A stretch of 64,000 nt of DNA from Eledone cirrhosa (taxonomy: Eukaryota). The notes below the pieces were generated by a model. The model was not told the DNA's origin and made no database searches. It worked only from the letters and a program-made list of their open reading frames with translations. Below are positions 416-61,545 of this stretch, piece after piece (position 1 is the first letter of the stretch; each line of letters starts with the position of its first letter). A program made the position numbers and the translations under genes. The DNA is taken from positions 239,320,001-239,384,000 of the forward strand of contig OZ024743.1 in the NCBI GenBank assembly GCA_964016885.1, given 5' to 3'.

Positions 416-2329
416 ACAGCTGCATTTATCTTGCTTTATGTTCATACCAGTTATCACCAAGTCACAACCAGTGACCTCAAGAGACAGGACGTTCCGCCAT
501 GTTCAAGAAAGAACATACATACTCACACATGCATCTTTAGGAGTTTAGACTTGTGATGTACTTATATTGACAGAATCTTCCTTAGTATATGGGCAGTTCC
601 CATTAGTACTATCTTTTGTATTTCTCCTATACCCGGGTTTCCTGGGATTTGCGATAAGTAATCATTAGACCCCTTAGGTATCATTCCTAGAGCGCCTACA
701 ACCACTGGTATTGTTTTAGTTCTCAATTTCCACACTTTTCCAATTTCTATCTCCAGGTCCTTATACTTGCTCAATTTTTCAAATGTTTTTATAGATACAT
801 TCTTGTCTATTTGGAACGGACATATCAATTAGCAGGCATAGCCTCTTTTTAAAGTCCTTCAGTATTATATCAGGTCTATTTGCATCTATTTTTCGGTCTG
901 TTTGGATGCTAAAGTTCCACAAGATTGAGATGTGATCTTTTTCAAGTATGGGAGGTGGTTGATGCTCCCACCAATTCTTTTGATGGGGCAGGTCAAAGTG
1001 CTTACACATTATCCAATGTATGTATTGTGCAGCTTTGTCATGCCTGTTTAGGTATTCGGTTGGAGCTATAGGACTGCACATTGAAATTATATGGTCAATG
1101 GTCTCTGGTTGTTTTTTGCATACACGGCATAATGGGCTGCATCCATTTTTTATTATGTTGGCTTGGTAATTTTTTGTTGGCAGACACTGATCTTGTGCTG
1201 ATATAATCAGTCCTTCAGTCTCCGATTTCAGTCCAGAGGATGCCAACCACTGATGGGTTAAAGTTTTGTCAACATCAGGATTGTTAGCTCGCTGTGGGTA
1301 TTTTCCATACAGAGGCTTTTCTTGCCATTTCTTAGCCAGTTTCTGTAGCAGTTCTTTCTTTGGAGTTACTTTTACCTGCTTTGCTTTTTCTGTGTTTTCC
1401 CTTTCAGCAGTAAATGGGACTTCTGAAATTTGTAGACCATTACTGTATCTTTGTGCATCTTTTGTAATGGAATATGATCTTTTGATGCTTTCGTGTTTCA
1501 AAACGAGTTTGATCATCCAATCATGTGATTCCCTTAGATATGTAGATAATCCAATTGTTGCAGTTTTCAACGCAATGTCTAACTGGACTAACCCACGTCC
1601 TCCTTCTTTCCTAGGGAGATATATTCTATCTATATCTGCCTTAGGGTGATGCATTCTGTTCATGGTTAAGAATTTTCGAATTTTTGTATCGAGCCTACGG
1701 ATCTCTGTGCTTGACCAGTTGATGACATTGTAACTGTAGGTTACTACTGGTATGGCAAGCGAGTTTATGGCATCGATCCTATTCCTTGCATTCAATTCCG
1801 TTCTTAAGATTGCTCTTACTCTGCGGTAACATTCCTTCCTTATCCTTTCCCTCATTGTCGAGTGCTTGATTCCGTCTCCTTCACAAACACCTAGATATTT
1901 GTAAGTTTTTTCTTGATGAAGTTCTCTCATCACGTTCCCCCGATCAAGATTAATTTCTGAACTCTTCAGCAGCTTTCTTCTGGTGAACGTTGCTTTGGCG
2001 CATTTATCTAGTCCAAACTCCATTTTAATGTCATCACTGAACTGCTCCACAGTGGATAATACCCCTTGCAATTGTTCATCATTTTTTGCAAATAGTTTCA
2101 GGTCATCCATGTAGAACAGGTGATTAATGGTTTTGTCATAGACTTTATATCCATGTTTTGTTTCATTGAGCATTTTACTTAATGGTATAAGTGCGATGCA
2201 GAATAAAAGCGGTGATAAAGAGTCACCCTGAAAAATTCCACAATTAATATTAACTTCTCCAGCTTCCAGTGATTTTGTTTCACTATTCAAAAGGAGTGTC
2301 GTTTTCCATGTCTTCATATTGAATGACAA

Positions 2330-2330
<1 letters not shown>
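416..2330 (-). mobile_element. 5'-truncated Dong/R4-clade non-LTR retrotransposon (RT + CCHC + restriction-like endonuclease), family A
   Basis: ORF 779-2329 has GIFQGDSLSP, LFYMDDLKLF, YKYLG, CRVC..ETIDHIISMC..YLNRHD and RPDI. The frameshifted ORF 562-828 ends KYKDL...IPVVVGALG. Flanked by (TAA)n at ~390-415 and ~2328-2385. Confidence 0.92.
562..2329 (-). pseudogene. RT-REL endonuclease ORF of Dong/R4 element (one frameshift near 820)
   Basis: Overlapping ORFs 779-2329 and 562-828 together give a continuous RT/zinc-knuckle/PD-(D/E)xK protein. Confidence 0.88.
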
Positions 2331-2385
<55 letters not shown>

Positions 2386-2386
<1 letters not shown>

Positions 2387-2577
2387 GGGCAGTGGATTGG
2401 CTGTATCGGTAGAGGGTCCGACGTCATGCTTTGAAGCATTGAGTTACTTACCTTTATGATCTGAGTTCAAATCCCGCCAAGGTTAACTTTGCCTTTCATC
2501 CTTGCGGGGTCGATAAAATAAAGTACCAGTAATGTACTGGAAATTGCTGGCCTTGTGCCAAATGTAGAAACAATTAT
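2386..2577 (+). mobile_element. tRNA-derived SINE
   Basis: A-box-like tggctgtatcggtagag, B-box gagttcaaatcc, conserved body gcctttcatccttgcggggtcgataaaataaagtaccag. Multiple copies in the window. Confidence 0.85.
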
Positions 2578-2584
2578 TTTTGCT

Positions 2585-2797
2585 GGTTTGGCAGTATCGG
2601 TAGAGCGTCAGACACCATCCTTTGCGGAATAGAGCTATGGCCCTTTACGTTCTGAGTTCAAATCCCACAGAGGTTAACTTTGCCCTTCATCCTTACGAGG
2701 TTGATAAAATAAAGTACCAGTCATGCACTGGGATCCATTGAATCGACTTTCCTCTCCCCCAAAATTGCTGGCCTTGTGCCTATATAAGAAACCATTC
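2585..2797 (+). mobile_element. tRNA-derived SINE (second tandem copy)
   Basis: Same A/B boxes and body as 2386-2577. Confidence 0.85.
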
Positions 2798-2859
2798 TTA
2801 TTATCTTTGTTGTTCAGTCTTTCAAGACATGTGTACACATCGCTCTGTAAGTTTTGTTA

Positions 2860-4590
2860 ATTTTTCACATATTTACATAACATTCATTGTTATAAGTTTA
2901 TCACCAACTGTCAATACGGCGCTATACATTGTCCTCTGAAAAGGAGGCCCCTTCATAGTATTTGAGTCATTGTCACTTGCCAGCGACTCAAATGTCGACA
3001 GTAATGTCACCACTGTTACTACAGACAAGGCCACCATATACAATAACATCATCAACAACGACAGCAACAACGGCAAAAACAAAAACAGCAGAAGCAACAA
3101 TGACAACGACAACAACAACAGTTACTACAACAGCAGCAACGACGATACAAAAAATACAACAGCAGCAGCAGCAACAGCGGCAATGACAAAAACAACACTA
3201 GCAGCAACAACAACAACACCATCAACGACAACGACGACAACACCAACAGCAGCAGCAACAACAACACCATCAACAACAACGACGACAACACCAACAGCAG
3301 CAGCAACAACAACACCATCAACGACAACGACGACAACACCAACAGCAGCAGCAACAACAACACCATCAACGACAACGACGACAACACCAACAGCAGCAGC
3401 AACAACAACACCAACAACGACAACGACAACAACACCAACAGCAGCAACAACAACAACGGCAGCAGCAACGGCAACACTATCAACTATAGGAAAACTAAGG
3501 GCAAACACAAATACTGCAGCAACAACAAAGGCAACAACAACAGCAGCAATAACATTAAAAACAACAAAATATCATTCGTAGCTACGGCTGCGAAAACAAT
3601 AGAACTGTTCGACATGGACTTGGGTAGGGGTTGGCAGCAACTGAGAGAAAACTTCTCATATATAGATGTATTGGCGTTATGTCGAAAAAGCCGGAGCTGG
3701 CCGCACCATTCCAGGTGGAGGCTGCTCTGAAGGGCTTAATGTCAGATATTCAACACTTGGAAATAGTCAAGCAGTTTGGGAGCATCTCGGTGCTCAGCAA
3801 TAGCAAGATCCTTGCAAAAAAGTACTGCGTGGTTCCTTGCAAAATAGACCAATATATTTTCTTCCCCTCTTACATAGAAGGAAGGACACCGAAGATTTGC
3901 ATTTCTAAGATATTGCTAGAAATGGATATCTGGTGGATCCTAACATGAATAGGTCTAGAGGGAAGCGAAGCACTCCTCGAGGTAAAAAGGATCTGAAGAG
4001 AGAACTAGCCTGGAATCAGTTTGGAGAAACTTCTTCAGTTCAAATTAGACAAGCTTGAAAAGATCCAGACCTAATACGCCTTCCTAGTGTGGAACGAAGT
4101 GTCATAGTTGAGAGTAAAAATCCCTGCTGTCATATTTTGCAGAAAATCCGGTTATATGAAATATTTTAGCCCTCAACAAAAGGCATAAACAAATACCGGA
4201 ACATCAAAAACAACAGCAGAAATTGTGGTACCAACAATGCCAGCAGCAGCAGCAAAAACACCGATAACAGCAGCACCAGACACAAACAAAACCGCCCAGG
4301 GTGTCCGTCAGAAAAGCCCCCCCCCCTCCTTCTTTCTCTGTCTCATCTAAACACAAGAACACACATAAATACCTATACAAACACAAACTTACTCCCAGTA
4401 ACATCCGAAACGGATTCTACAAACACACGGATCTCCTCATCTCGAAGTGAAGTTGAAGGGGAATCCACAAAACCAAAATTACAAAAGCGAAGAAGTAAAA
4501 CAAGAAAAAAAAAACTGGTAGAAAGAGACGGCCTTATTTTAAACATCAACACCCTTAACGAAACGATCCAAAACACGACACGTCAGACTG
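2860..4590 (+). mobile_element. Decayed Tx1-type LINE ORF1 region with Asn/Thr low-complexity N-terminus
   Basis: PKICISKILLEMDIWWIL (~3890-3945) matches KIKIQSIIPNIDIWWVL in the Tx1 ORF1 split by the Gypsy insertion. Degenerate zinc knuckle near 4120-4160. Confidence 0.6.
3207..3450 (+). repeat. 48-bp minisatellite, ~5 copies (encodes TTTPSTTTTTTPTAAA)
   Basis: acaacaacaccatcaacgacaacgacgacaacaccaacagcagcagca repeated in tandem. Confidence 0.9.
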
Positions 4591-18473: not shown

Positions 18474-18671
18474 TCTAAACATAATAAAAGAATATAATAG
18501 ACAAAATCCATGGGGCTGAAAAGCAGAGACATGAGGGCGGCCGAACATTTAGCAGCTTCCAACCCGGTCAGCCGCCCTCAATATATATATATATATATAT
18601 ACATATATATATACATATATATATATAACATAAGAAACGGAGAATCAGTGGTGCGACGAATAAAATTTATT

Positions 18672-18768
18672 AGACATATTACAATCGTTTCTCTGGCGAC
18701 CAGTTCGAAGCACGTACGATGTAATGATCGAACCTGACTCTGAAATCGCAAGGTCCTCAGACACGTCT
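18672..18768 (-). ncRNA. Type-I hammerhead ribozyme with enlarged stem II
   Basis: agacgtgt CTGAGGA ccttgcga...tcgccaga GAAA cgattg TA atatgtct aataaa. 8-bp stem I including GU pairs. Element 18625-18840 has inverted ends. Confidence 0.7.
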
Positions 18769-19469
18769 CTATTCTACGAAGCAGAGTTTCCAGAGTTTTA
18801 TTCGTCACACCACTGATTCTCCGTTTCTTATGTGATATCATACTCTGCTCTGCAAGAGCATCGAGTACTCAAACGGCATACCGTTTAAGGACGCTTTACG
18901 CATCCCACACCAATTATATATCTATATATATATAAGCGCAGGAAAATATCACGCACATATGCACATATATTTTAGGAATGTGAATCTATTTATATTGGTT
19001 ATATAAAGCAATAATTGTATTGTAATATATTGTACGATACTGATGCATATGGTTAGGTATAATCCTTTTGTGAATAAATGAATGAAATATCTATCAGTTT
19101 TAACCTAATTTATATTAATTGTTATATGTAAACAACGACGGAGAAGTAACTCTTATTTTATAACGTTTTTTAGATAAGATTTAAAGCACCGTATTCGAAA
19201 TATGATTTTGATAACGGTGTTTTTTACTTTGAATAAAATATGCTTGTATCTACTAGATCTTATAGTTATTTATATTGTAAATATTACAGTAAATGAAATA
19301 AATATTACAGTAAATTAAATAAAACATTACAGTAAATTAAATAAATGTTTAATGTACTAACTGATTGTGTGCGCGTATATTTTGTATATGTATGCGTATG
19401 TATGCGTCGGCGCATACTTATACACTGACCTAAATCTTAACGAAACTTACTCTTACTATTTTAATAATT

Positions 19470-19645: not shown

Positions 19646-19973
19646 ATAATCTCTGTCATTTTCATTTAATAAATTTATTTAGAAAAAACAAATAACGAAA
19701 CGAAATTAAATTTCGTTTCGCTTCTAACTCACTTTTGTATGACTGACACTTATACAATTAAGTTAAAGTGTACATCTACATATGTATACGGAAGTATTAG
19801 TATGCATATAAATACACACATGTATACATATGTACATGTACTGAGTTTTTCACTAGACACTTTACAGTGAGTGTCAGCTAGTCTGTATGTAACCACACAG
19901 ACGGACCGGGTTTTAGAGTCATACGAGTTTTCAAGGAAACACATTTCCTCTATTCTCTAGAGGGCCAGACAGG

Positions 19974-20018
19974 AATATTAGACTAGTTTCGATGTTATTA
20001 CATCTCATCAGCAATATT
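19974..20018 (-). ncRNA. Minimal type-I hammerhead ribozyme (intact core)
   Basis: aatattg CTGATGA gatgt-aata-acatc GAAA ctag TC taatatt. Confidence 0.85.
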
Positions 20019-20710
20019 TACCCATCTTCCGGCTTCTCTGGAGAATTGTAAAAGCACATATCGTTATATGCTTTTTCTATGAAAATTAGTAGTGGGTAGA
20101 CTAATTTGCATAGAACGTGAGTCATTGTACGCACCGGTTCAGCGGAAACGATAAAAACAAATAACGAAACGAAATTAAATTTCGTTTCGCTTCTAACTCA
20201 CTTTTGTATGACTGACGCTTAAACAATTAAGTTAAAGTGTACATCTACATATGTATACGGAAGTATTAGTATGCATATAAATACACACATGTATACATAT
20301 GTACATGTACTGAGTTTTTCACTAGACACTTTACAGTGAGTGTCAGCTAGTCTGTATGTAACCACACAGACGGACCGGGTTTTAGAGTCATACGAGTTTT
20401 CAAGGAAACACATTTCCTCTATTCTCCAGAGGGCCAGACATGTGTGTATTTATATGCATACTAATACTTCCGTATACATATGTAGATGTACACTTTAACT
20501 TAATTGTTTAAGCGTCAGTCATACAAAAGTGAGTTAGAAGCGAAACGAAATTTAATTTCGTTTCGTTATTTGTTTTTATCGTTTCCGCTGAACCGGTGCG
20601 TACAATGACTCACGTTCTATGCAAATTAGTCTACCCACTACTAATTTTCATAGAAAAAGCATATAACGATATGTGCTTTTACAATTCTCCAGAGAAGCCG
20701 GAAGATGGGT

Positions 20711-20757
20711 GAATATTGCTGATGAGATGTAATAACATCGAAACTAGTCTAATATTC
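20711..20757 (+). ncRNA. Minimal type-I hammerhead ribozyme (intact core, predicted GUC cleavage after 20749)
   Basis: gaatattg CTGATGA gatgt-aata-acatc GAAA ctag TC taatattc. 8-bp stem I, 5-bp stem II, palindromic ACTAGT stem III. Confidence 0.9.
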
Positions 20758-21279
20758 CTGTCTGGCCCTCTGCAGAATAGAGGAAATGTGTTTCCTTGAA
20801 AACTCGTATGACTCTAAAACCCGGTCTGTCTGTGTGGTTACATACAGACTAGCTGACACTCACTGTAAAGTGTCTAGTGAAAAACTCAGTACATGTACAT
20901 ATGTATACATGTGTGTATTTATATGCATACTAATACTTCCGTATACATATGTAGATGTACACTTTAACTTAAAATTTATTTAGATTATCCTTAAACTCCG
21001 GAGCTGAGAATCATTCGGTTATTCTAAATAGAATGTTAGTCTAATGACTCCATTTAAACCATACATGTACTTTTGCTTTTGCAAGAAAATGTTCTCTTCG
21101 GTCCACATAATTATCCTCGCTTTTTTACGTCCATCGCCAGGCAACGTCACGAACCAAAGTATCGTCTTCCTGTTTTCCTTCGGTTGCAACGTTTTTCGAA
21201 ATATTTACTTATGCGTCCACAGAAAATCCCGTTAAGCGTGAAAGCAGCAATTTTTGCTTAAAATTTAATCTTTGCTCTA

Positions 21280-21539: not shown

Positions 21540-21599
21540 CAACCAGGCCCTCAAGCGGAGTGGCTTCCGGGAGGAAATATCCTTTTATCCAGCTTCCCT

Positions 21600-23075
21600 T
21601 AGCGGATCCAGCAGACGACACCGCCGCTCACGCAACGTAACGTGGTTCAATCCTCGCCATAATGCCGTGGTGGCAACACCTATCGGGAAAATCTTCTTTA
21701 GACTCCTCGAAAAACACTTCCCACTACAACACCGCTACCACAACATAATCAACAAAAACACCATCAAACTCTCCTACAGCACCCCACCTAACTTCGCACA
21801 AAACATCGTCTCCTAAAACAACAAAAAACTCAACCCCTATGGAAGAAATAACCAAGATATCAGTGGAGAGCCGACCAGGAGGTGTAACTGCCCTGATAGA
21901 TCTACGTTCCCCCTCAACAACAAATACCGAGAACGTAACGTGATCTACCAGTGCAACGTGAAGACGGACACCTCCAATAAAGCTTATATAGGATTAACCG
22001 CGTGTGACTTCAAGACCTGGCTCTACCAACACCGACATACTTTCCGAAACCCGGTCCGGCGACATGCCACTACTCTTTAGGGCCACATCTGGGACCTCCA
22101 AGATAATAATATAACCTACAATCTCACTTGGAGTTTACTGTCCAAAGCTAACTTTTACACGGGAGGACGCCGTTCGTGTAACTTATGCTCGGAGAAAACA
22201 TTACAAATGCTGTTTTCGAAGGACCAACTCCTAAACAAGAAAGATGAACTGGTACCCGCATGCAAACACAGATTGTGTAGGACTTACCTCGTCCTCAAAC
22301 CCCATAACGACCCGGGTGGGTAGACAAGAGCTGATACCCCCTACTTGCCGAATAAGTTAGAGGAAACCCCAGCTTACTTAGGTAGATGTATCTCTTTCCT
22401 TTTCTTTTCCTCTTTGTCTTCTTCTCCCTGTCTCATCCTATCACTTCCTTCCACCCCCTATTTTCTTCCTCGTCTGCTTTTCCCCTTCGCCTACCCCGAT
22501 GCAGCCCATCGGGCCTCTGTAGCATCAGTTCCCCACCCCTGTATTTTAAAGATAGAATTGGCCGAATACGGTTTACTAACTACTTATAGCAGACGTGTTA
22601 AACCCCTTTAATTCTGTATCAGTTTTGGTACTACTCAATTTCTACAAGTTTGTTCTATTCTCAACTTATTAACCTGTAATTGTAGGATAGCATTGTGATT
22701 TTTTTATTCATTTCTCACTATCTAATTTTATATATTTTTTTTATTTATTTCTATTATCTTGTATTGTCTCCTACTCTCATTCGATTTACCTATTCTATAA
22801 CCTCCCTCCTCCACTTCATACACTATTCTGCTGTATACATATCACTTTCAACGCTTGACCGCTCCACTCACTCCCCTATTGTTCAAAAGGCAAGTTCAGC
22901 CACCCCTACCTCCCAACAAATGCCGTGATAGACTTATTTGTGTTTACAAAAAAATTTAACCAAGCCTCTTGACAACTACAATCTTCCCATATAAAGAAGT
23001 ACCCCCTTGAAAAGTTCGGCTATTTATTCACCAGGCTAAAGATTCTAATTTAGTGTAGAAATAGCCGACAAATCT
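21600..23075 (+). mobile_element. 5'-truncated Penelope-like element (Naiad-type GIY-YIG plus long 3' pLTR)
   Basis: WFNP, IGKIFFRLLEKHFP, IKLSYS, CNCPDRST.PLNNK.RERNVIYQC, AYIGLT..DFK, CNLCSEK. The 3' region 22180-23070 is shared with 59955-61545. Confidence 0.8.
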
Positions 23076-28365: not shown

Positions 28366-28494
28366 ATATTTTAAGTTAAGGCCTCCGTCGGTCAAGGCTG
28401 ACCGTACGTAAACAATATATATGTATGTATATATATATACTCTACTACAAATCTGATAGAAATATCCATGGAAAAGCGTACTCAGTCCATAGGA

Positions 28495-29590
28495 CAGGTT
28501 AAGTATAGTTAGTTACAACAGTGACACATACTTAGATGTTGCTGAGTTATACATCCCAGCTCATCCAAACTGTTATATAAACAAGGCAGCACCCTATTAC
28601 AACTCAACTCTTAGCAACTGCGGCTTCTCCGAAAGAATCACTTACTCTCCAGATCACCGCCCTCCATTTAGCAAGAAAAAAACTGAACATAAAACCGTGG
28701 TTTGCTTCTCGCCACCATTCACACTAAATATGAAGACCAACGTAGGTAGAACATTTCTAGTCCTCCTAGACCTTCTCTTCCCCGTAGGCCATAAATACAG
28801 ACAAATATTCAATCGCTATGCAATGAAAATAGACTACTATTGTATCAGAAGCATAAAATCCCACATAACCAGCAAACGCAAATGCATTCTCCCTTTCAGA
28901 GGCTCATACAGAAGGCCAGAGGCATGCCCAATGGATCAGCAGTGCAACACTCCAGTGGGGGTATATCAAGTAAAAGTGACTCCACTAACCAGAACCACCA
29001 ATCTGAAACCTAGACGTATATTGGAATGTCTGAGAGACGGGTCAAAAGCTGGTACATGAACCACAACCTTCAGACATCCTGACATACTACTCATCTCGCG
29101 AACACTGTGTGGCACCTCAAAAATGACGGCACAGCGTTCACTCTTAGATGGAGGATACTAGAAAAATCCACCCCTATGTCAATGGGACAAAGTTTTGCCA
29201 GCTGTGTAACGCGAAAAAGTAGATTTTACTCTCGCAACTGGCTTCAGAGAAACATTGATAATACACCCACCCGACTGCTGTAGTCACTGTCCAGACGAAG
29301 TAAAATTTATTCTAAAAATACGGTATGGATAAAATTAACTAAATTTATTTTCTGCAACATTGTAGCTCTAATTTAGCACAACACAAGTTCCCCCCTTTTG
29401 GTTGTTTTAAAACTTACCTCCCTTTACATTATTTAAGGGATGTGTCTATTTGTCTATTTGTGTATTTTCTAAAAACTCTTTTGTGGAGTTGTGGTGGTAG
29501 CCATCTTTGTTTATATAATAGGCTGACTAAGTCGGGTTGTATTACCCAACGAAACTAAATAACTGTATATGTCACTTTTGTAACTAATTA
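28495..29590 (+). mobile_element. Penelope-like (Naiad-type) GIY-YIG fragment with short inverted 5' pLTR piece
   Basis: FSPPFTLNMKTNVGRTFL..LFP..HKYRQIFNR, CPMDQQC..VYQ, CQLCN. ~28508-28531 is the inverse of ~29565-29588. Degenerate HHR at ~29513-29570. Confidence 0.75.
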
Positions 29591-33400: not shown

Positions 33401-33988
33401 CTCAGTGGATTTTAAACTCTGAGAGCAGGTTCCTGGTTCGACTCCACAAACATTCTATCCTCCGTTCTAACAACTCTGCCAAAACATAAACGAATATGTA
33501 TGTCTCCATAAATACAAGAGTCCACCGAGAATAAAGCGAATGAAAGGAAAATAGTAAAGGCAGACAGGAAAAGAAAGAAACATGAACATTGAATTAAAAA
33601 GAAAACTGTAATAGAGGCTGCAGACACAAAAGATTATTGCGAAACCGTCTTCACTGTGTAATGAAATAATGCAAATAAAGATAGATAAAACCAACACAAG
33701 AAGGATGCAGTAAGATTTCCGAAACAGAAAAAGAAAAAGGAAACGAATCATAACTTAATTTCGCTCGTAAGTTATAGCTTTAACTAAGATTACTGAAAAG
33801 TACAAAGCAACATTGCACTAATATGTGTGTACTTGTTTGTTGGTATGCGTAGTTGCATGTGTGTTGTGTATGTATGCATATATATATATATATATATCTA
33901 TATATATATATATATATATATATAGTGGTAGAACACTGGAAGGTAATATCCGTAGTGGTAGAGCACTCAGTCCATGGGACGAGTTAGG

Positions 33989-34182
33989 TAGAGGTGGTTA
34001 CACAACAGTTAGTTCACCATACCGAGAACAATTGTTTCACCTTAGCGGATCCTCAGCTCGTAATAGACGTGGTTATACGGAACAGCTGTTCCGTATAACC
34101 ATGTCCATTACGATCTGAGGATCCGCTAAGGTGAAACAATTGTTCTCGGTATGGTGAACTAACTGTTGTGTAACCACTTCTA
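33989..34182. repeat. 194-bp palindrome carrying two divergent hammerheads, nested in a second inverted repeat (33823-33877 / 34203-34256)
   Basis: Axis 34085/34086. HHRs at 34023-34060 (-) and 34111-34148 (+): cga(g/t) CTGAGGA tccgctaaggt GAAA caattg TT ctcg. Confidence 0.85.
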
Positions 34183-34592
34183 TATGTATAAATATATATA
34201 TACATACATACACAACACACATGCAACTACGCATACCAACAAACAAGTACACACATAAGTATGCATATATATATATATATGCATGTATATATAAATATAT
34301 ATATATATATGTATATATAAATATATATGTATATATATATTTATATATATATATATGTATATATATATATTTCGTTTCTGAATTTGTTTAGCAAGATTCT
34401 TTATCTGAAATCGTGTGTTGAAACCGATATTGTTATAATTTGGGAGGGTCATGTTGCCAATAAGAAACACACGCACCAGTAGCTTTCACTTCAATTTATT
34501 ATATATTTATAAATTTATAAATTTACAAATCTACAAACTTATAAATTTCTGGTTGGTTGGTTGGTTCCACAACCAGATAGTTGTTTATATAT

Positions 34593-34637
34593 AGTCATAG
34601 TCCTTTCGTCACACACTCTGTGACCTCTTCAGTGACT
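34593..34637 (-). ncRNA. Type-I hammerhead ribozyme (intact core)
   Basis: agtca CTGAAGA ggtcaca-gagtg-tgtgac GAAA ggac TA tgact. Confidence 0.75.
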
Positions 34638-34892
34638 GGGGATTCCTTTCTTTGTTTCCGTGCCTTTCCTTTCTTCTGTCCTACGCCATTTTGTTTCTGT
34701 GTGTGTGTTGTGTGCTCAGTTTGCGCATGCGCCACATCCGGGTGTCAGTGTGTGTTTGTGTTCATTTATCTATTTGTTTATTTATTTACCGGATGTGGCG
34801 CATGCGCAAACTGAGCACACAACACACACACAGAAACAAAATGGCGTAGGACAGAAGAAAGGAAAGGCACGGAAACAAAGAAAGGAATCCCC

Positions 34893-34937
34893 AGTCACTG
34901 AAGAGGTCACAGAGTGTGTGACGAAAGGACTATGACT
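34893..34937 (+). ncRNA. Type-I hammerhead ribozyme (intact core)
   Basis: agtca CTGAAGA ggtcaca-gagtg-tgtgac GAAA ggac TA tgact. Stem I covaries with 28208 (tgtca/tgaca). Confidence 0.78.
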
Positions 34938-35095
34938 ATATATAAACAACTATCTGGTTGTGGAACCAACCAACCAACCAGAAATTTATAAGTTTGTAGA
35001 TTTGTAAATTTATAAATTTATAAATATATAATAAATTGAAGTGAAAGCAACTGGTGCATGTGTTTCTTATTGGCAACATGACCCTCCCAAAGTAT

Positions 35096-35159
<64 letters not shown>

Positions 35160-37250: not shown

Positions 37251-39350
37251 CTAAATATAGACGGTGCTGCAAAGTTTTTTGGGCCAGTGGACCCTACGAC
37301 CTGAACGGGTCGTGGTCTTGTAACGTGGTGATGGTGGTGGTGTAGGGACAGGCGATGATGGTGGATCAGGAACAGTCGTTCGCTCAACAGGCAAGTACGA
37401 AGGGGTTCGTGGATCAGGAACCACAGCGTCCGTATCAAGGTGCGCCTGCTTAAGCCTGTCTAATGTAACTGTCACCCTGGACCCCTTAATATCTAACGTG
37501 AAATGCTTAGCCGGGCGCGCTAAGACACGGTAAGGTCCAGTGTAAGGCTGTGTGAGCGGGGGCTTCACCGTATCATTCCTTACAAAGACATGCGTCCACG
37601 AGGCAATATCCCTCTGGACAGCAGTCTTGACAGTTTGTTTCCTAGTGTCCATTGGCGGCAAATCCTGGAAATAGGAGCGCAAACGGGACACGTAGGAAGC
37701 GTGATCTTGGGCATCAAGATCGATAGGGGCAAGCATTTGCCCGGGCAACGTCAGAGGGGCACCGTACAGTACTTCGGCCGGTGAAAATCCAAAGTCGACC
37801 TTCACCGTTGACCGAATCCCTAGTAGCACAATAGGAAGGTACTCGCTCCAATGCGCCGAGTCCATTGAGGCCATTAAGGAGGCCTTCAGTTGGCGGTGAA
37901 AACGCTCCACCATACCATTCGAAGCGGGATGGTATGCCGTAGTTCGAATGCGTTTAGCACCAATTATTTTTGACAGCTCGAGGAAAAGGCTCGACTCGAA
38001 CTGTCGTCCACGGTCGGTAGTTATTGTGGATGGAACTCCATAACGAGAGATCCATCCAGACACAAGAGCACGTGCTGTTGTCTCCGCGGTGATGTTTTTC
38101 AAGGGGATGGCCTCAGGCCATCTCGAAAAACGGTCAATGACGGTAAGTAGATAAGAAAAACCATCGCTGACAGGCCAAGGTCCCACTATGTCAATATGAA
38201 TATGCGAAAAACGCGCATCTGGGTTAGCAAAGGTACCCAGGGGAGCCTTGACGTGTCGATGGACCTTTGATCTCTGGCAAGCGACGCAGGAACGGCACCA
38301 AGCAGCAATTTCACGCCTCATATTTGGCCAGAAAAATCTAGCTGATATGAGCTTTGCTGTGGCAGAAGATCCTGGATGCGAGATACAATGTAATCCCAGA
38401 AACACGGTCCGACGATGATTCTCTGGAACGAAGGGCCTAGGCACGTCCAAAGAGACGTCGCAGAGAATTTGGCCAACTGCAGTCGACAGAGGCAAGTATT
38501 TCATCTCGCAATTCGCAAACTCGGGCGATGGTACATCCAATGACTCAAGGGGAGGCTGATCCGCAGCCAAACGAGTCAGATCTATGTCAGAGGATGACGA
38601 GATCGCTGTCACGGGCAAGCGGGACAAATCATCGGCCGCTGTATTTAGTGAACCCGGAATGTGCTGGATATCACTCGTATATTGCGAGATGAAATCAAGG
38701 TGTCTCGTCTCTCTGGGCGAGTATTTATCAGCCTTCGTTCTCAAAGCAAAAGTCAATGGTTTATGGTCAGTGAGGATAGTAAATTGTCTACCCTCTAGCA
38801 CATGTGAAAAATGTTTCACGGCCAAATAGATGGCTAAAAGCTCTCTTCCAAAGGTGCTGTAGCGCGTCTCAGCAGGATTTAGCTTTTTGGAAAAAAACTC
38901 CAGCGGTTGCTGGTAACCATTGATGTTTTGCTGTAGTACTGCGCCCACAGCGATATCCGATGCATCAACACAAAGCGTTAGCTTTGCACCGGGTACCGGG
39001 TGAGTCAGTAACGAAGCATTAGCCAAAACAGTTTTGGCGTGCTGAAAATCAGCAAGTTGAGTGTCTGTCAAAGAAATATCTTTGTTCTTCCTCCGACAAT
39101 TTTTCAAAATTTCTGTCAGGGAGAAAAGCAACTTGGCACAATTTGGCACGAAACGCCTATAAAAGTTAACCAGACCTAAGAACTGGCGTAACTGACGTAG
39201 TGAGGTCGGTGGAGGCAAATCCTCTATGACCTTAACTCGCTCAGGCCGGGGTCGAATTCCGTCAGTATCGATGACGTGACCCAAGAAAGTCAGTGACTCA
39301 GCACCAAAAATACATTTGGGTGCATTAAGCTGCACGTTATACGCCTTCAA
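37251..39350 (-). CDS. pol: Gypsy pol fragment: RT C-terminus/thumb, RNase H, integrase (699 aa open frame)
   Basis: KC.F....[72 protein letters not shown]. Lacks gag, protease and the YxDD motif. Confidence 0.9.
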
Positions 39351-39544
39351 TCGGCAGTATTAGTTATAGATGTTATCGCCACTTTAGCAGGGTGGTAGAA
39401 TCAGTGGTCGTTAGTTGCCAGTGTGGTAAGTGATAGTATCCTCGTTGGATTATCTTGTTGACATAGACGTGAGGGAAGGTCCCTCGATCTGTTTACCATC
39501 TATTTACAATATTCCTTTCGTCAGGTCGCCAATTCCAGCAGCAT

Positions 39545-48902: not shown

Positions 48903-51900
48903 GAAAAAGTGGAGAATAACATGGTCAACAGTACAAAAAGGGGATTTATTTACAGTCTAACAATTGTTCCACTGATATAGATGTCGAAAAATTGCTGAAC
49001 ACTAGAAGCAGTGCCACTGAATTTTAAATACGATGTTAGCTCGATCAGATCTTCGGAAACTGTTATTGAAAATATATGTAACCGGCAAATTTACAAATTC
49101 AAATTACATCATCAATAATAATATTTATAATAATGATATAGAAAGAAAAGAAGGAAGAAAGGGAGATAGATACAGTAAAGAAAGAAAGGAAAGGAAAAAG
49201 AAAAAGAGAAAGAGAAAAAAGCGTTAACAAGGAAGGTCTTAACATAGTAAAAAAGCTTAAAATATCCGATAGAACCGAACCTCTAACCCCTTGTAAACCC
49301 ACTTTTAATCTGAAGGATCATAAATGAAACTTCGAAACTAACCCTACTATTAGATTAATATGTTCCTTCAAAATCAGATATAGGCAGAATTAGCAAGTTT
49401 ATACTAGATAGAATAATACCACAAATTAAAAAATAACTAATAATCAAACTCTGGGGTAAAACAAATGAAGCAATAGATTGGTTTAATAAATTAGACATTA
49501 GAAAATCTTCCGACTTTATACAATTTGACATAAATGACTCTTCTATTTCCCCAGTTACCCTAAATAAGGCACTATCCTTTGCACAAAAAGACTCTGACCT
49601 TTCACTTGATGAAATTAAAATAATACTAGCTGCTAGAAGAGCAATCATTAAATTCGACAATATTAACTGGGAGCGAAAAATAGACAGAATAACCTCGATA
49701 TAACTATGGGATCAAATGATTCAGCCCAAGTTACAGACATTGTCGGAATTTATATAGCACATTTCTTACATAGGGAATTTGATAACCTACAAGGAGGAAT
49801 CTATAGAGACGATACACTACTTTTAGCTGAAAACCTAAATAATCAAAACTTAGAAAGATTAAGGAAAAAGATTAGGAAATTCTTTAATAATTTAGGCTTT
49901 AACATCACTTTTGAACCCAACTCTAAAAAAGCTAACTTCGTAGATGTATCACTCAACCTTAACTCAGGACTAATCCCTTCCAGAAAAATAATGAAAATTT
50001 AGCTTACATTGATTATAACTCTAATCACCCTCGATCCATAATAAACTCCATAACACATAGTATATCCCTTAGAATCTCGCACCTATCTTCTAACCTAGAA
50101 ATTTTTAAAGAACACCCTAACTACTACATCATAGCTTTACTTAAGGCAGGCCATAAAGAGAGACTCAAATATATACCACATACAAAAAATAACAACACAC
50201 TTAATATTAATAGCACTATCCACACCTATAGAAGCAACAAATCTAGGACTAAACATAGAAATTGGCAACAAACACAAATTAAATGAACAGAATACTAATA
50301 TAAAGACCACTAATAACTATAGAAGATGCAGAAATAGAAACTACTTATGGTTCAATCCTATGTTTAACTCCTCTATAAAAACAAAACTACCTTACACTTT
50401 CTTCAAATTGGTTGACAAACACACTTCCCTAAAATTCATAAATATCATAAAATCTTTAATAGAAAAACTATCAATCTATCATACTCCACTGCCAACAACA
50501 TAGAATGGCACATACATAAAATTAACTATCAAAGAATTTATAATACATGTAGCCCACAAATAAGTACCATAATACAAAATACAAAACATAAGCATATAAC
50601 ATCATCACAACCAAACACACGCCAGAGAACAAAACATTAACAAAACCAATTCTCAGCCCACACATAACAACCTACAAAAACATATCGAAGAACCGGCGCA
50701 TAGAAAAGCATCTAAATGTAACTGCCATCTACCTGACAAATGCTCTTTACAAGATAGATGCCTAGAGACAAATATAGTATACCTATGTACTATAAATTCA
50801 GGTAGCTTAGCATGGCATTACATTGGTTCTACAGCTGGGGAGTTTAAGAAAAGGTGGTACGTAGATAGACACTCTATGATTAACAGGAATCTCTTAAATA
50901 CAACGACTCTCGCCAATAAAATCTGGCAACTCAAAGATGCAAACATGGAATATAAAATCAGCTGGACGAAGCTATCAAAAGCAATGGTCTATCAAATTGG
51001 TATGTCCCACTGCGGTCTCTGTAATATGGAGCTTTTCCAAATTTTAAATTACAACAAAATTCTTCTTATAAGTAAAATTGAAAGGACTATCTTTTGTCGA
51101 CATCGGCAACCAAATTTGAGAACTTTAGACCAGCTTAATTCCATCTTATCTATTCCATAACCGAGATTCTACCACTTGGATCTATTATGATATTACATTA
51201 TCAGCATCATCATCATTATGATTATGATTATAATTATAATTATAATTGTCACCATCTATCAAAGAACAACATCAAAACCTCTTATATTTACATTCTTATT
51301 TTATATATCTCTATCTTTCACTCTCTATCTTTATGTTTCTGTCCCTAAATTTATTTCATCTCTGTCATTCTATTTTATCATATAATATAACTTAAAGCTA
51401 ATTAATTAATTTATTTATTAAAATAACCAATACACACATAAATATATTTAAAATTATCATATTTTTACCTTCATATCTCTCCATATATTTTAACAATTCT
51501 CAAAAACCACTCTCAATAATTTTAATATGTTTAAATATTCTTCGCAAATTTTTACTTCTTTGGCATATTTATTTTCATTTTTCATTTTTCACATTTTATA
51601 CCATTTTATATCACATTAGATGTAATTTATTTATTTATTTTTTTTATTTATCAATTTTTTTAAATATATTTTTTATATATTTATTTTTATTTACATTTAT
51701 TCATGTATTAACGTTTATTCATTTATTTTTCCCTCTATTTTTCTTTCTATGCTTCGTTATTTTCACTTATGCTTGTCTCTCTGTCTATCATCATTTTCTA
51801 TATATTTTCTTCTCTTTATATGTTTTTTCTCTGTAATAATTTCTCCTTTTTCTTCTTCTTTTTCTTTCTCTTTTTCCTTCTTTTTAATTTTTCCTTTCCT

Positions 51901-56599: not shown

Positions 56600-57290
56600 A
56601 TATATAAGTATGTACACGTACATAAATATATGTATACAGACGTATAGTAGTATCTATATATATATACATACATGCACACATATATATATGTACGTATGGA
56701 TTCACCGAACATTTATTATAATGCTAGGTGTGTTTGTAAACAAACATCCCGTATTAAGCCGTAGTGTCTAGCAAGCATCGTTGCTCGTTTGTTCAACACT
56801 GACAAAGGAACGCTGTACTAGTTTCAAGCTTATTAGCTATCGTCAGCAACGTATACCTTCCCGCCAGATTGTTGAACGTATATACTTACCTTATGCATAT
56901 TAACGGCTGAGTAGCCCAATTTGCATATCGAGTGGGTTAATCGGCTGGGTGCACCGAAAACGATAAACGGAAAAAATGAAACGAAATTTCATTTCCCACT
57001 CTTAGTACGGCTGTTACTTAAATATAAGTATGTACACGTACATACATATATGTATACAGATGTACAGTAGTATGTATATATATATACATACATGCACACA
57101 TATATATATGTACGTATGGATTCACCGAACATTTATTATAATGCTCAGTGTGTTTGTAAACAAACATCCCGTATTAAGCCGTAGTGTCTACCAACCATCG
57201 TTGCTCGTTTGTTCAACACTGACAAAGGAGTCTGTACTAGTTGCAAGCTTATTAGCTATCGTCAGCAACTTATACCTTCCTACCAATCTG
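56600..57290. repeat. ~420-bp unit in ~1.6 tandem copies, distantly related to the 19685 element
   Basis: 56604-56865 repeats at 57024-57285. gcaccgaaaacgataaacggaaaaaatgaaacgaaatt resembles 20130-20185. Confidence 0.7.
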
Positions 57291-59954: not shown

Positions 59955-61545
59955 AATAAAGAAATCACAATGCTATCTTACAATTACAGGTTAATAAGTT
60001 GAGAATAGTAAAAACTTATAGAAATTACAAAACAGATACAAGCTTAAAGGGGTTTTTAACATATGCTATAAGTAGTTAGTAAAACGTATTCGGCCAATTC
60101 TATCTTCAAATAACAGGGGTAGAGGAACTGATGCTACAAGGCCCGATAGGCTGCATCGGGGTAGGCGAAAGGAGAAAGCAAACGAGGAAGAAAATAGGGG
60201 GTGGAAGGAAGTGATAGGATGAGACAGGGGGAAGAAGGAGACAAAGAGAAAAATAAAAGAGATACATTTACCTATGTAAGCTGGGGTTTCCCCTAACTTA
60301 TTCAGCAAGTGTGTGTTTGTGTGTGGGGGGGTATCAACCCTTGTCTACCCACCCGGTCGTTATAGGGTTTGAGGGCGAGGTAAGTCCTATGAAATCTGTG
60401 TTTGCATGCGGTTACCAGTTCATCTTTCTTGTTTAGGAGTTGGTCCTTCGAAAACAACATTTGTAATGTTTCCTCCGAGCATAAGTTACACGGAAATATC
60501 ATTCTCCACGCCAATAAGACAGTCCTACTTTTCGACAACTCCAAGTGGATAAAGAGAGCTCCCGACTCCCCATTCGACGTCAGTATGGGCGCGACGGATT
60601 CGGCCGAGGTCACAGGCCTTATAGGATTATTACTACTATTTAAACTCACCGAAATATTTCCTGCATTCGGCGGTGGATTGTACCGGGATGATGGGCTCCT
60701 CACCCTCAAAGAGTACAACCCCAGTAGTACAGACCGGGCTCGTAAACAACTAATCAACTTCTTCCGGGACTGGAGATTTAAAATCACCCTACAAACGTCC
60801 CTAACCTGAGTCAATTTCCTGGACGTTACCCTTAACCACGAAAATGATCTGTACTACCCATACAGGAAACCAAACGATAACCTGCACTATAGCCACCGCT
60901 GCTCTAACCATCCTAGAAACATCACCAATAACCTGGTTAAAAACATCTGCCCCCTGTTATTTTAAGATAGAATTGGCCGTATACGTTTTACTAACTGCTT
61001 ATAGCAGATGTGTTAAAAACCCCTTTAAGTTTGTATCTGTTTTGTAATTTCTATAAGTTTTTTCTATTCTCAACTTATTAATCTGTAATTGTAAGATAGC
61101 ATTGTGATTTCTTTATTCATTTCTCACTATATAATTTTATATATTTTTTTTATTTATTTATTTTTTAAATTTATTTCTAGTATCTTTTATTGTCTCCTAC
61201 TCTCTTTCGATTTACCTATTCTATAACCTTCCTCCCCCACTTCATACACTATCCTTAGAATCTGATGTATACATATCACTTTCAACGCTTGACCTCTCCA
61301 CTCACTCCCCTATTGTTCTACAGGCACGTTCAGCCACCCCTACCTCCCACCAAATGCCATGATAGACTTATTTGTGTTTACAACAAATTTGAACCAATCC
61401 TCTTGACAACTTCTATCTTCCCATATAAGGAAGTACCCCCTTGAAAAGTTCGGCTATTTATTCACCAGGCTAAAAATTCTAATTTAGTCCCGAAATAGCC
61501 GTAGAAACGGCTTGAGCTCTGCCGACGGGGTCATACTTTTTCCTG
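59955..61545 (+). mobile_element. Rearranged Penelope-like (Naiad-type) element: inverted 3' part + RT fragment + pLTR
   Basis: 59955-60492 is the inverse of ~22178-22712. 60495-60946 reads PFDVSMGATDSAEV, GGLYRDDGL, VNFLDV, SNHP. 60950-61500 matches 22538-23068. Degenerate HHR at 61435-61531. Confidence 0.85.

Follow-up and report, generated by a model that had tools for sequence, protein, structure and literature searches.

The stretch of DNA analyzed here, 64,000 nt of Eledone cirrhosa contig OZ024743.1 (positions 239,320,001 to 239,384,000; hereafter the window), carries an insertion built from a 469-nt unit with a hammerhead ribozyme motif (Table 1). The two arms lie head to head in RNA sense, with their 3' ends facing outwards, and a 13-bp target-site duplication (TSD), AAATTTATTTAGA, frames the whole insertion. 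The RNA 3' end of the longer arm, at 19684, falls at a fixed site that we term B, and that of the shorter, tail-less arm at a fixed site termed A; phases are counted from the base right after the predicted ribozyme cut, which is phase 1. A sequence-only reading of the window had described about 1.6 tandem copies followed by an inverted segment exceeding one full unit, and both features hold, with the overlap measured at 66 nt. That reading missed the TSD, the 3-nt microhomology at the junction and the fixed nature of both outer ends.

Table 1. Features of the two-armed insertion, in positions of the window.
Feature	Position	Strand	Remarks
Left target-site duplication	19671..19683	.	13 bp
Tail-bearing arm	19684..20440	-	757 nt, 1.61 units, RNA sense minus; phase 10 to 297
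'Tail' between fixed sites A and B	19684..19750	-	site A about phase 221-231, site B about 291-299
Near-palindromic hairpin inside tail	19696..19720		25 nt
Direct repeat	19684..19971 / 20153..20440		288 nt at spacing 469; 3 mismatches
Type I hammerhead motif	19973..20019	-	predicted cut between 19981 and 19980; sole complete copy on minus strand
Head-to-head junction	20438..20440	.	3-nt microhomology; likely joining point of two cDNAs
Tail-less arm	20438..20972	+	535 nt, 1.14 units; phase 158 to 223
Inverted segment and its counterpart	20438..20972 / 19758..20292		535 nt; 4 mismatches
Internal direct repeat	20438..20503 / 20907..20972		66 nt; 100% identity
Type I hammerhead motif	20711..20757	+	7-bp stem I, CUGAUGA, 5-bp stem II, GAAA, palindromic stem III; predicted cut between 20749 and 20750
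Long AU-rich hairpin, immediately upstream of site A	20889..20960	+	phase 140-211; candidate protein-binding signal
Right target-site duplication	20972..20984	.	13 bp; first base common to element end

The hammerhead, initially described as perfect, has an intact core (CUGAUGA, stem II, GAAA and GUC) on both strands, but its stem III is only the 6-nt palindrome ACUAGU, and an Rfam search of the window gave no hammerhead match at gathering score, with Hammerhead_HH9 reaching 28.4 and 25 bits against a gathering score of 52 (E 1.4e-4). Matches to miRNA families in the same search were likewise below cut-off and reflect the AU-rich hairpin, which resembles a stretch present in a sibling family. 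Compared with shuffled sequences, the 50-nt hammerhead motif folds with a z of -3.4 and the whole 469-nt unit with a z of -10.7. The longest ATG frame on the circularized unit is 64 codons, in agreement with the initial view that the unit is without coding capacity.

The insertion had also been called recent, which holds in relative terms only: it has six private differences over about 1.3 kb, where the short-locus average is 0.31 per 100 bases. Both of its outer ends are the fixed ends of the family, and the copy is typical apart from its target. Because it carries one ribozyme per strand, it is predicted to be a dead end, unable to release a monomer. A short element with terminal inverted repeats of about 50 nt lies at 18626-18833, adjoining a (TA)n tract.

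Copies, ends and targets across the genome

Exact matches to the 35-nt ribozyme core number 1,436 in the 3.0-Gb genome of this species and none in a reversed control, so these copies are not due to chance. We sampled 39 other best-scoring loci, the rest of the first 100 core matches listed on contig 1 and one more locus, and after leaving out L032 (a mixed, diverged subfamily) and L074 (a duplicate of L073) before counting, 64 loci with 109 arms were available. Arm ends fall almost entirely at two sites about 70 nt apart, with 52 at site A (phase 221-231), 53 at site B (phase 291-299) and four elsewhere (105/109 at A or B), and (TA)n adjoins 93 of the 109. Two arms are present at 45 of the 64 loci, and every complete two-armed locus has one A end and one B end (41/41). 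The same one-of-each rule holds throughout the position-ordered chromosome-1 sample (18/18) and in 19 further two-armed insertions that were read by eye. At targets other than microsatellites the 64-locus survey gave TSDs of 9-16 bp.

The opposite, 5' ends are distributed uniformly over the unit (n=108, KS p 0.96), with six lying within 25 nt of the ribozyme cut against 5.8 expected; a reading of the 5' end at phase 10 as a ribozyme-cut RNA end was dropped, there being no excess of 5' ends near the cut. The cut site is crossed at least once by 99 of the 109 arms, and arm lengths across many loci range from under 1 to over 57 units. Where two cDNA ends meet, 0-6 nt of microhomology is present, and the junction is palindromic in two of the 45 two-armed loci. 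The free permutation along the unit that the sequence-only reading had proposed to look for is not borne out: across the 64 loci randomness is confined to the 5' ends, and the 3' ends of the RNA occupy two fixed positions. That reading had also held that fixed ends, shared by all copies as the pLTR of a coding Penelope element, would speak against a circular template. The ends are indeed fixed, yet at no locus among the 64 does the repeat serve as the pLTR of a coding element, and since the fixed ends are Penelope initiation sites they do not refute the circle.

Duplication and conversion at the DNA level are active in this family, as seen from 16 variants that occur in some but not all units of short loci and from the higher-order repeats of long arrays (L036, L069, L094-L096). 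Because of this higher-order duplication the long arrays were kept out of the evidence on circles. The array at L094-L096 (G000:C1:95621000-95648000+) exceeds 57 units, consists of 7-unit higher-order repeats and begins at site A. Unit-specific substitutions are concentrated at phases 23-25 (about 20772-20774 in the window; 16 events against about 1.7 expected), perhaps marking a modified base or a site of reverse-transcription error.

Relation to retrozymes and Penelope-like elements

The family consists of small, dispersed tandem units, each with a hammerhead, and has no coding capacity, no LTRs and TSDs longer than 4 bp; by these testable sequence features it is a non-LTR retrozyme, the identity that the first reading had given it. 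Animal non-LTR retrozymes share non-coding tandem units with a type I hammerhead each, low GC, TSDs of more than 4 bp and co-occurrence with Penelope-like elements, and the 469-nt unit, larger than the 170-400 nt reported earlier (PMC7229834), lies within a range of 51-972 bp (bioRxiv 10.64898/2026.07.22.740005). Plant LTR retrozymes, in contrast, have type III hammerheads in LTRs and 4-bp TSDs, unlike the type I topology and 13-bp TSD described here.

For non-LTR retrozymes, circles have been proposed as templates and Penelope elements as candidates for their copying (Cervera and de la Pena 2020, PMC7229834), and a later study added co-occurrence and a pLTR phylogeny, with the mechanisms still to be elucidated (Li, Clavereau and Pollet 2026, bioRxiv 10.64898/2026.07.22.740005). 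In the accessible text of these papers, the retrozyme life cycle therefore rests on two hypothesized steps, the circle as template and Penelope enzymes as copiers, both supported by co-occurrence and pLTR phylogeny, and editing is mentioned only as a possible cause of RNA heterogeneity (PMC7229834). The present family leaves genomic footprints of both steps, circle copying and Penelope insertion. The accessible parts of the retrozyme papers make no mention of ends fixed at two sites, of the one-of-each rule, of a chimeric insertion or of repeated A>G footprints, all of which are found here; the element belongs to the known non-LTR retrozymes, and the mechanistic evidence appears to be new. A literature search, with most subscription journals outside its reach, found no report of retrozyme editing or of rolling-circle insertion footprints; rolling-circle cDNA is used as a laboratory method to measure fidelity (PMC11331410).

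Two internal start sites defining a genomic 'tail' have been described as unique to Penelope-like elements (Frangieh et al., PMC11167929; PMC8557442), which are also known for a bias toward (TA)n, for a tail at one end and for arms that are inverted and truncated at the 5' side (Craig et al., PMC8557442; PMC3846280). In our family, two fixed internal 3' ends and an optional tail go with an arm that is inverted and 5'-truncated, and the targets are AT-rich DNA or (TA)n. A close comparison is with endonuclease-bearing Penelope-like elements (Neptune/Nematis and Anolis Poseidon; PMC11167929, PMC8557442, PMC3846280), which likewise combine partial tandems with an inverted 5'-truncated arm and may bear a tail at one end; their two internal start sites lie downstream of a hammerhead, and they too insert into AT-rich or (TA)n targets. 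The retrozyme differs from them in having no ORF, a tail of about 70 nt rather than 30-40, and repeats of the whole unit. Chlamys elements such as MRC1 are also non-autonomous Penelope derivatives with multicopy head-to-tail insertions, but their 3' end is like that of the partner, and a canonical hammerhead is absent from most of them (PMC8557442).

Potential partners were sought through the GIY-YIG domain, with 150 of 10,594 candidates scored, 30 loci screened and four Neptune-type families examined. The same genome contains young autonomous elements that combine a reverse transcriptase (RT) with GIY-YIG and carry a CX4CX2C motif, on which we place them in Neptune or Nematis (following PMC8557442), a placement by motif only. 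Two of their inverted insertions (L133 and L140) have one arm with a tail and one without, which is the retrozyme layout. Within the same search (150 of 10,594 candidates, 30 loci) the unit had no sequence homology to the ends of the four Neptune-type families. At L061 (4553-8290), a single (TA)n-flanked insertion, the left retrozyme arm ends at B, with tail, and the right arm joins 41 nt of retrozyme to a 2.4-kb 5'-truncated element of the Neptune-type family N2 that ends at N2's tail-less site. This single chimera may have arisen by a deletion that fused two neighboring insertions. A Neptune-type element is the likely partner, with N2 the best candidate.

Comparison of the 600-nt flanks of the 64 loci with six local ORFs revealed no RT + GIY-YIG ORF contiguous with the repeat. 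Its four matches were the chimeric opposite arm at L061, two old Hydra-type remnants (L037 and L053) and one weak match; the two remnants differ from each other, lie 190-220 nt away at differing phases, and are read as chance neighbors. Collectively, these features indicate that the element is almost certainly a non-autonomous Penelope-type retrozyme. LINE-1 twin priming is similar in that priming from both nicked strands produces an inverted 5' part, together with a TSD and microhomology at the junction; here, however, a fixed site takes the place of the random second priming site, poly(A) is absent, and the two arms are copied from overlapping template for more than one unit.

Repeated A>G changes and the form of the template

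The circular template proposed from the window locus is likely, with its support coming from sister loci; the window locus alone cannot separate a circle from a linear dimer because most of its sites are passed only twice. Both arms have a haplotype in common at 35 of 39 loci, whereas arms paired across loci agree in 128 of 1,561 cases; a single source therefore supplies both arms. If the template is a circle, each change in the RNA should reappear with every turn of copying. Locus L152 alone is decisive, and it came to light when an A>G variant was being traced, not at random. It has 17 A>G changes (RNA sense, relative to the nearest locus), each present in 4/4 or 5/5 passes over both arms and also in truncated partial units. 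A 5' U or A precedes 16 of the 17 (p 0.008), a context that matches the preference of ADAR. The flanking (TA)n is unedited, and the haplotype has four matches genome-wide, all inside L152. Editing of a whole-locus transcript cannot account for this pattern, since the arms lie on opposite genomic strands and one of them would show T>C. The changes at L152 are likely to reflect one edited RNA molecule read repeatedly, although a source array with this haplotype, absent from the assembly, is possible.

Other loci point in the same direction. At least seven such A>G changes occur in 3/3 passes of one long arm at L168, and two private changes at L044 (139T+148G) occur in 5/5 passes and nowhere else in the assembly. 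These two and the L152 set are the only unique variant sets; 142G, 345G and 372G were considered as private lineage markers and rejected, as they recur on other backgrounds and are hot spots. Among 50 young loci that were not selected for variants, A>G makes up 10 of 28 locus-wide changes but 12 of 123 single-unit changes (Fisher p 0.0015), the ratio of A>G to T>C among locus-wide variants, polarized against the common natural unit, being only 10:3 (p 0.054). From these A>G footprints we infer that the family is transcribed. Two loci speak against a simple monomer circle: at L164 and L150 the unit type changes back and forth along the insertion, as would be expected of dimeric or multimeric templates or of duplication after insertion. 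At L164 (2532-7233) phase 372 alternates between A and G, the order being G A G A G in one arm and G A G G A in the other, one informative site suggesting a dimeric circle with one edited monomer. L165 (938-9505) holds about 18 near-identical units over two arms, with several A>G changes in common, and is possibly a very long rolling-circle product.

The foremost alternative is Penelope-type priming from both strands on linear, uncut multimeric transcripts of arrays, with uniformity owed to homogenized sources or to later conversion. A linear route does exist: at L169 (G000:C28:60887900-60893899, about 1850-4320) 58 A>G changes fall within a single unit and its (TA)n flanks, about 1.25 and 0.75 kb (~2 kb together), are converted A>G on the same strand, so that a hyper-edited linear read-through transcript was reinserted. 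At L038 the two arms mirror each other in a variant pattern over their last three units, suggesting a mixed multimer; arrays also expand at the DNA level, and the Anolis Penelope protein used uncut linear RNA as its main substrate in vitro (PMC11167929). Linear multimers are nevertheless difficult to reconcile with L152, where 17 identical edits appear in every pass of both arms without a source locus: independent editing has a chance of about 1e-23 per extra pass, and two separate duplications plus at least five conversions would be needed. L044 is likewise without a source, and among the 16 variants confined to a subset of units none is in register across the arms, save one that is likely an end artefact. 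We consider this alternative unlikely.

A self-cleaved linear monomer, its ends held together by stem I and its nick jumped by the enzyme on each turn, would leave an equal footprint of repeated edits, and phases 469 and 1 do carry six unit-specific changes where about 1.1 are expected (p about 0.001). The cut/ligation junction is read cleanly, however, with a deletion at 465-469 in only 2 of 294 passes and no junction insertions in 64 loci, which favors a closed circle over end-jumping, and the 5' ends do not pile up at the cut; a nicked template of this kind is quite unlikely. An edited circle might instead be copied RNA-to-RNA into a linear multimer that then serves as template, placing the circle one step earlier. 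Edits would be repeated in this case too, and RNA-RNA replication has been raised as a possibility for mussel retrozymes (PMC7229834), but fresh multimers should gain unit-specific edits, whereas among single-unit variants A>G is no commoner than T>C (12 against 13), and we regard this route as highly improbable. Most improbable is a single cDNA that folds back or switches template at about 20440, as first proposed, or a satellite rearranged by replication errors: the 3-nt microhomology and two palindromic junctions would fit, but fold-back would give equal phase on both sides of the junction and leave the far end random, so the end statistics, with fixed RNA sites, one of each, and TSDs, largely refute it, and two separately primed cDNAs joined at microhomology fit better.

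With the covalently closed circle as the preferred template, the following cycle can be proposed. Tandem copies would be transcribed and cut by hammerheads paired through the palindromic stem III, as ribozymes of this kind cut as dimers (PMC7761336; PMC7229834), and the monomer would presumably be closed by a host ligase; holding one ribozyme, the monomer circle would resist re-cutting. An enzyme that is likely a Penelope-type reverse transcriptase/endonuclease would then copy the 469-nt circular RNA from both strands of a staggered cut in AT-rich DNA, usually (TA)n and 13 bp at the window locus, each exposed 3' end priming cDNA at a fixed internal site. Of the two cDNAs, one would start from A and its counterpart from B, which lies about 70 nt downstream, and this pairing would hold every time. 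Both would probably circle the same RNA across the cut/ligation site for a random length, until the two cDNA ends are joined at 0-6 nt of microhomology to give head-to-head arms. The cut, the priming sites and the joining are those steps for which the footprints lie in the genome, and circling is strongly suggested by the repeated edits. We put the probability of this full model, with the monomer circle as the usual template, at roughly 0.7.

A broader statement has, in our judgment, slightly better than even odds: that rolling-circle reverse transcription, target-primed and performed by a Penelope enzyme on a covalently closed RNA circle, has left its record in the genome of an animal. One ADAR-edited circle would have been written five times into both arms of one insertion, with the strands primed at two tail sites in strict one-each order, even when the arms derive from different RNAs. 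If so, editing of the circle would be a main source of new heritable retrozyme variants, and the tail would amount to the offset between the start sites of the two strands. Edits repeated on every turn offer a general means of recognizing circular templates wherever a genome has been assembled, and they point to RNA editing as a source of heritable variation in the repeat. Models of Penelope integration have to accommodate the one-of-each rule, and the family names parts that can be tested, namely the protein of a young Neptune-type element, the pair of start sites and (TA)n as the target.

Related elements and neighboring repeats

A sibling hammerhead family occurs in the window at about 56600-57290 (minus strand) and at L081 and L141. 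It has a similar AU hairpin and tail hairpin, 65-70% alike, and likewise ends in (TA)n, with a unit of about 420-430 nt in the window and L081 and of 480-510 nt in L141. An unrelated 310-nt hammerhead repeat at L032 (5950-9400) has an equal head-to-head layout with one tail, and the window contains two more head-to-head hammerhead pairs by (TA)n tracts, at 33930-34220 (34056-/34115+) and 34370-35100 (34632-/34898+). The 3' regions of the Neptune-type families N1 and N2 (L133, L136, L143, L061) contain a hammerhead-like motif with a palindromic stem III, in which U and A replace the C3 and G8 core pair; this putative ribozyme escapes standard patterns.

Decayed remnants of Penelope-like endonuclease ends, which we take to be Hydra-type from their motifs, lie in the window at 21560-22330, 28493-29059, 50135-51160 and 60302-60853, and are unrelated in sequence to the unit. 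They had no useful Pfam match in the window, and their 3' regions, considered as possible relatives of the unit, share only AT-rich hairpin noise with it. A 702-aa open frame at 37251-39359 (minus strand) presumably represents the RNase H and integrase of an LTR retrotransposon, which its motifs resemble.
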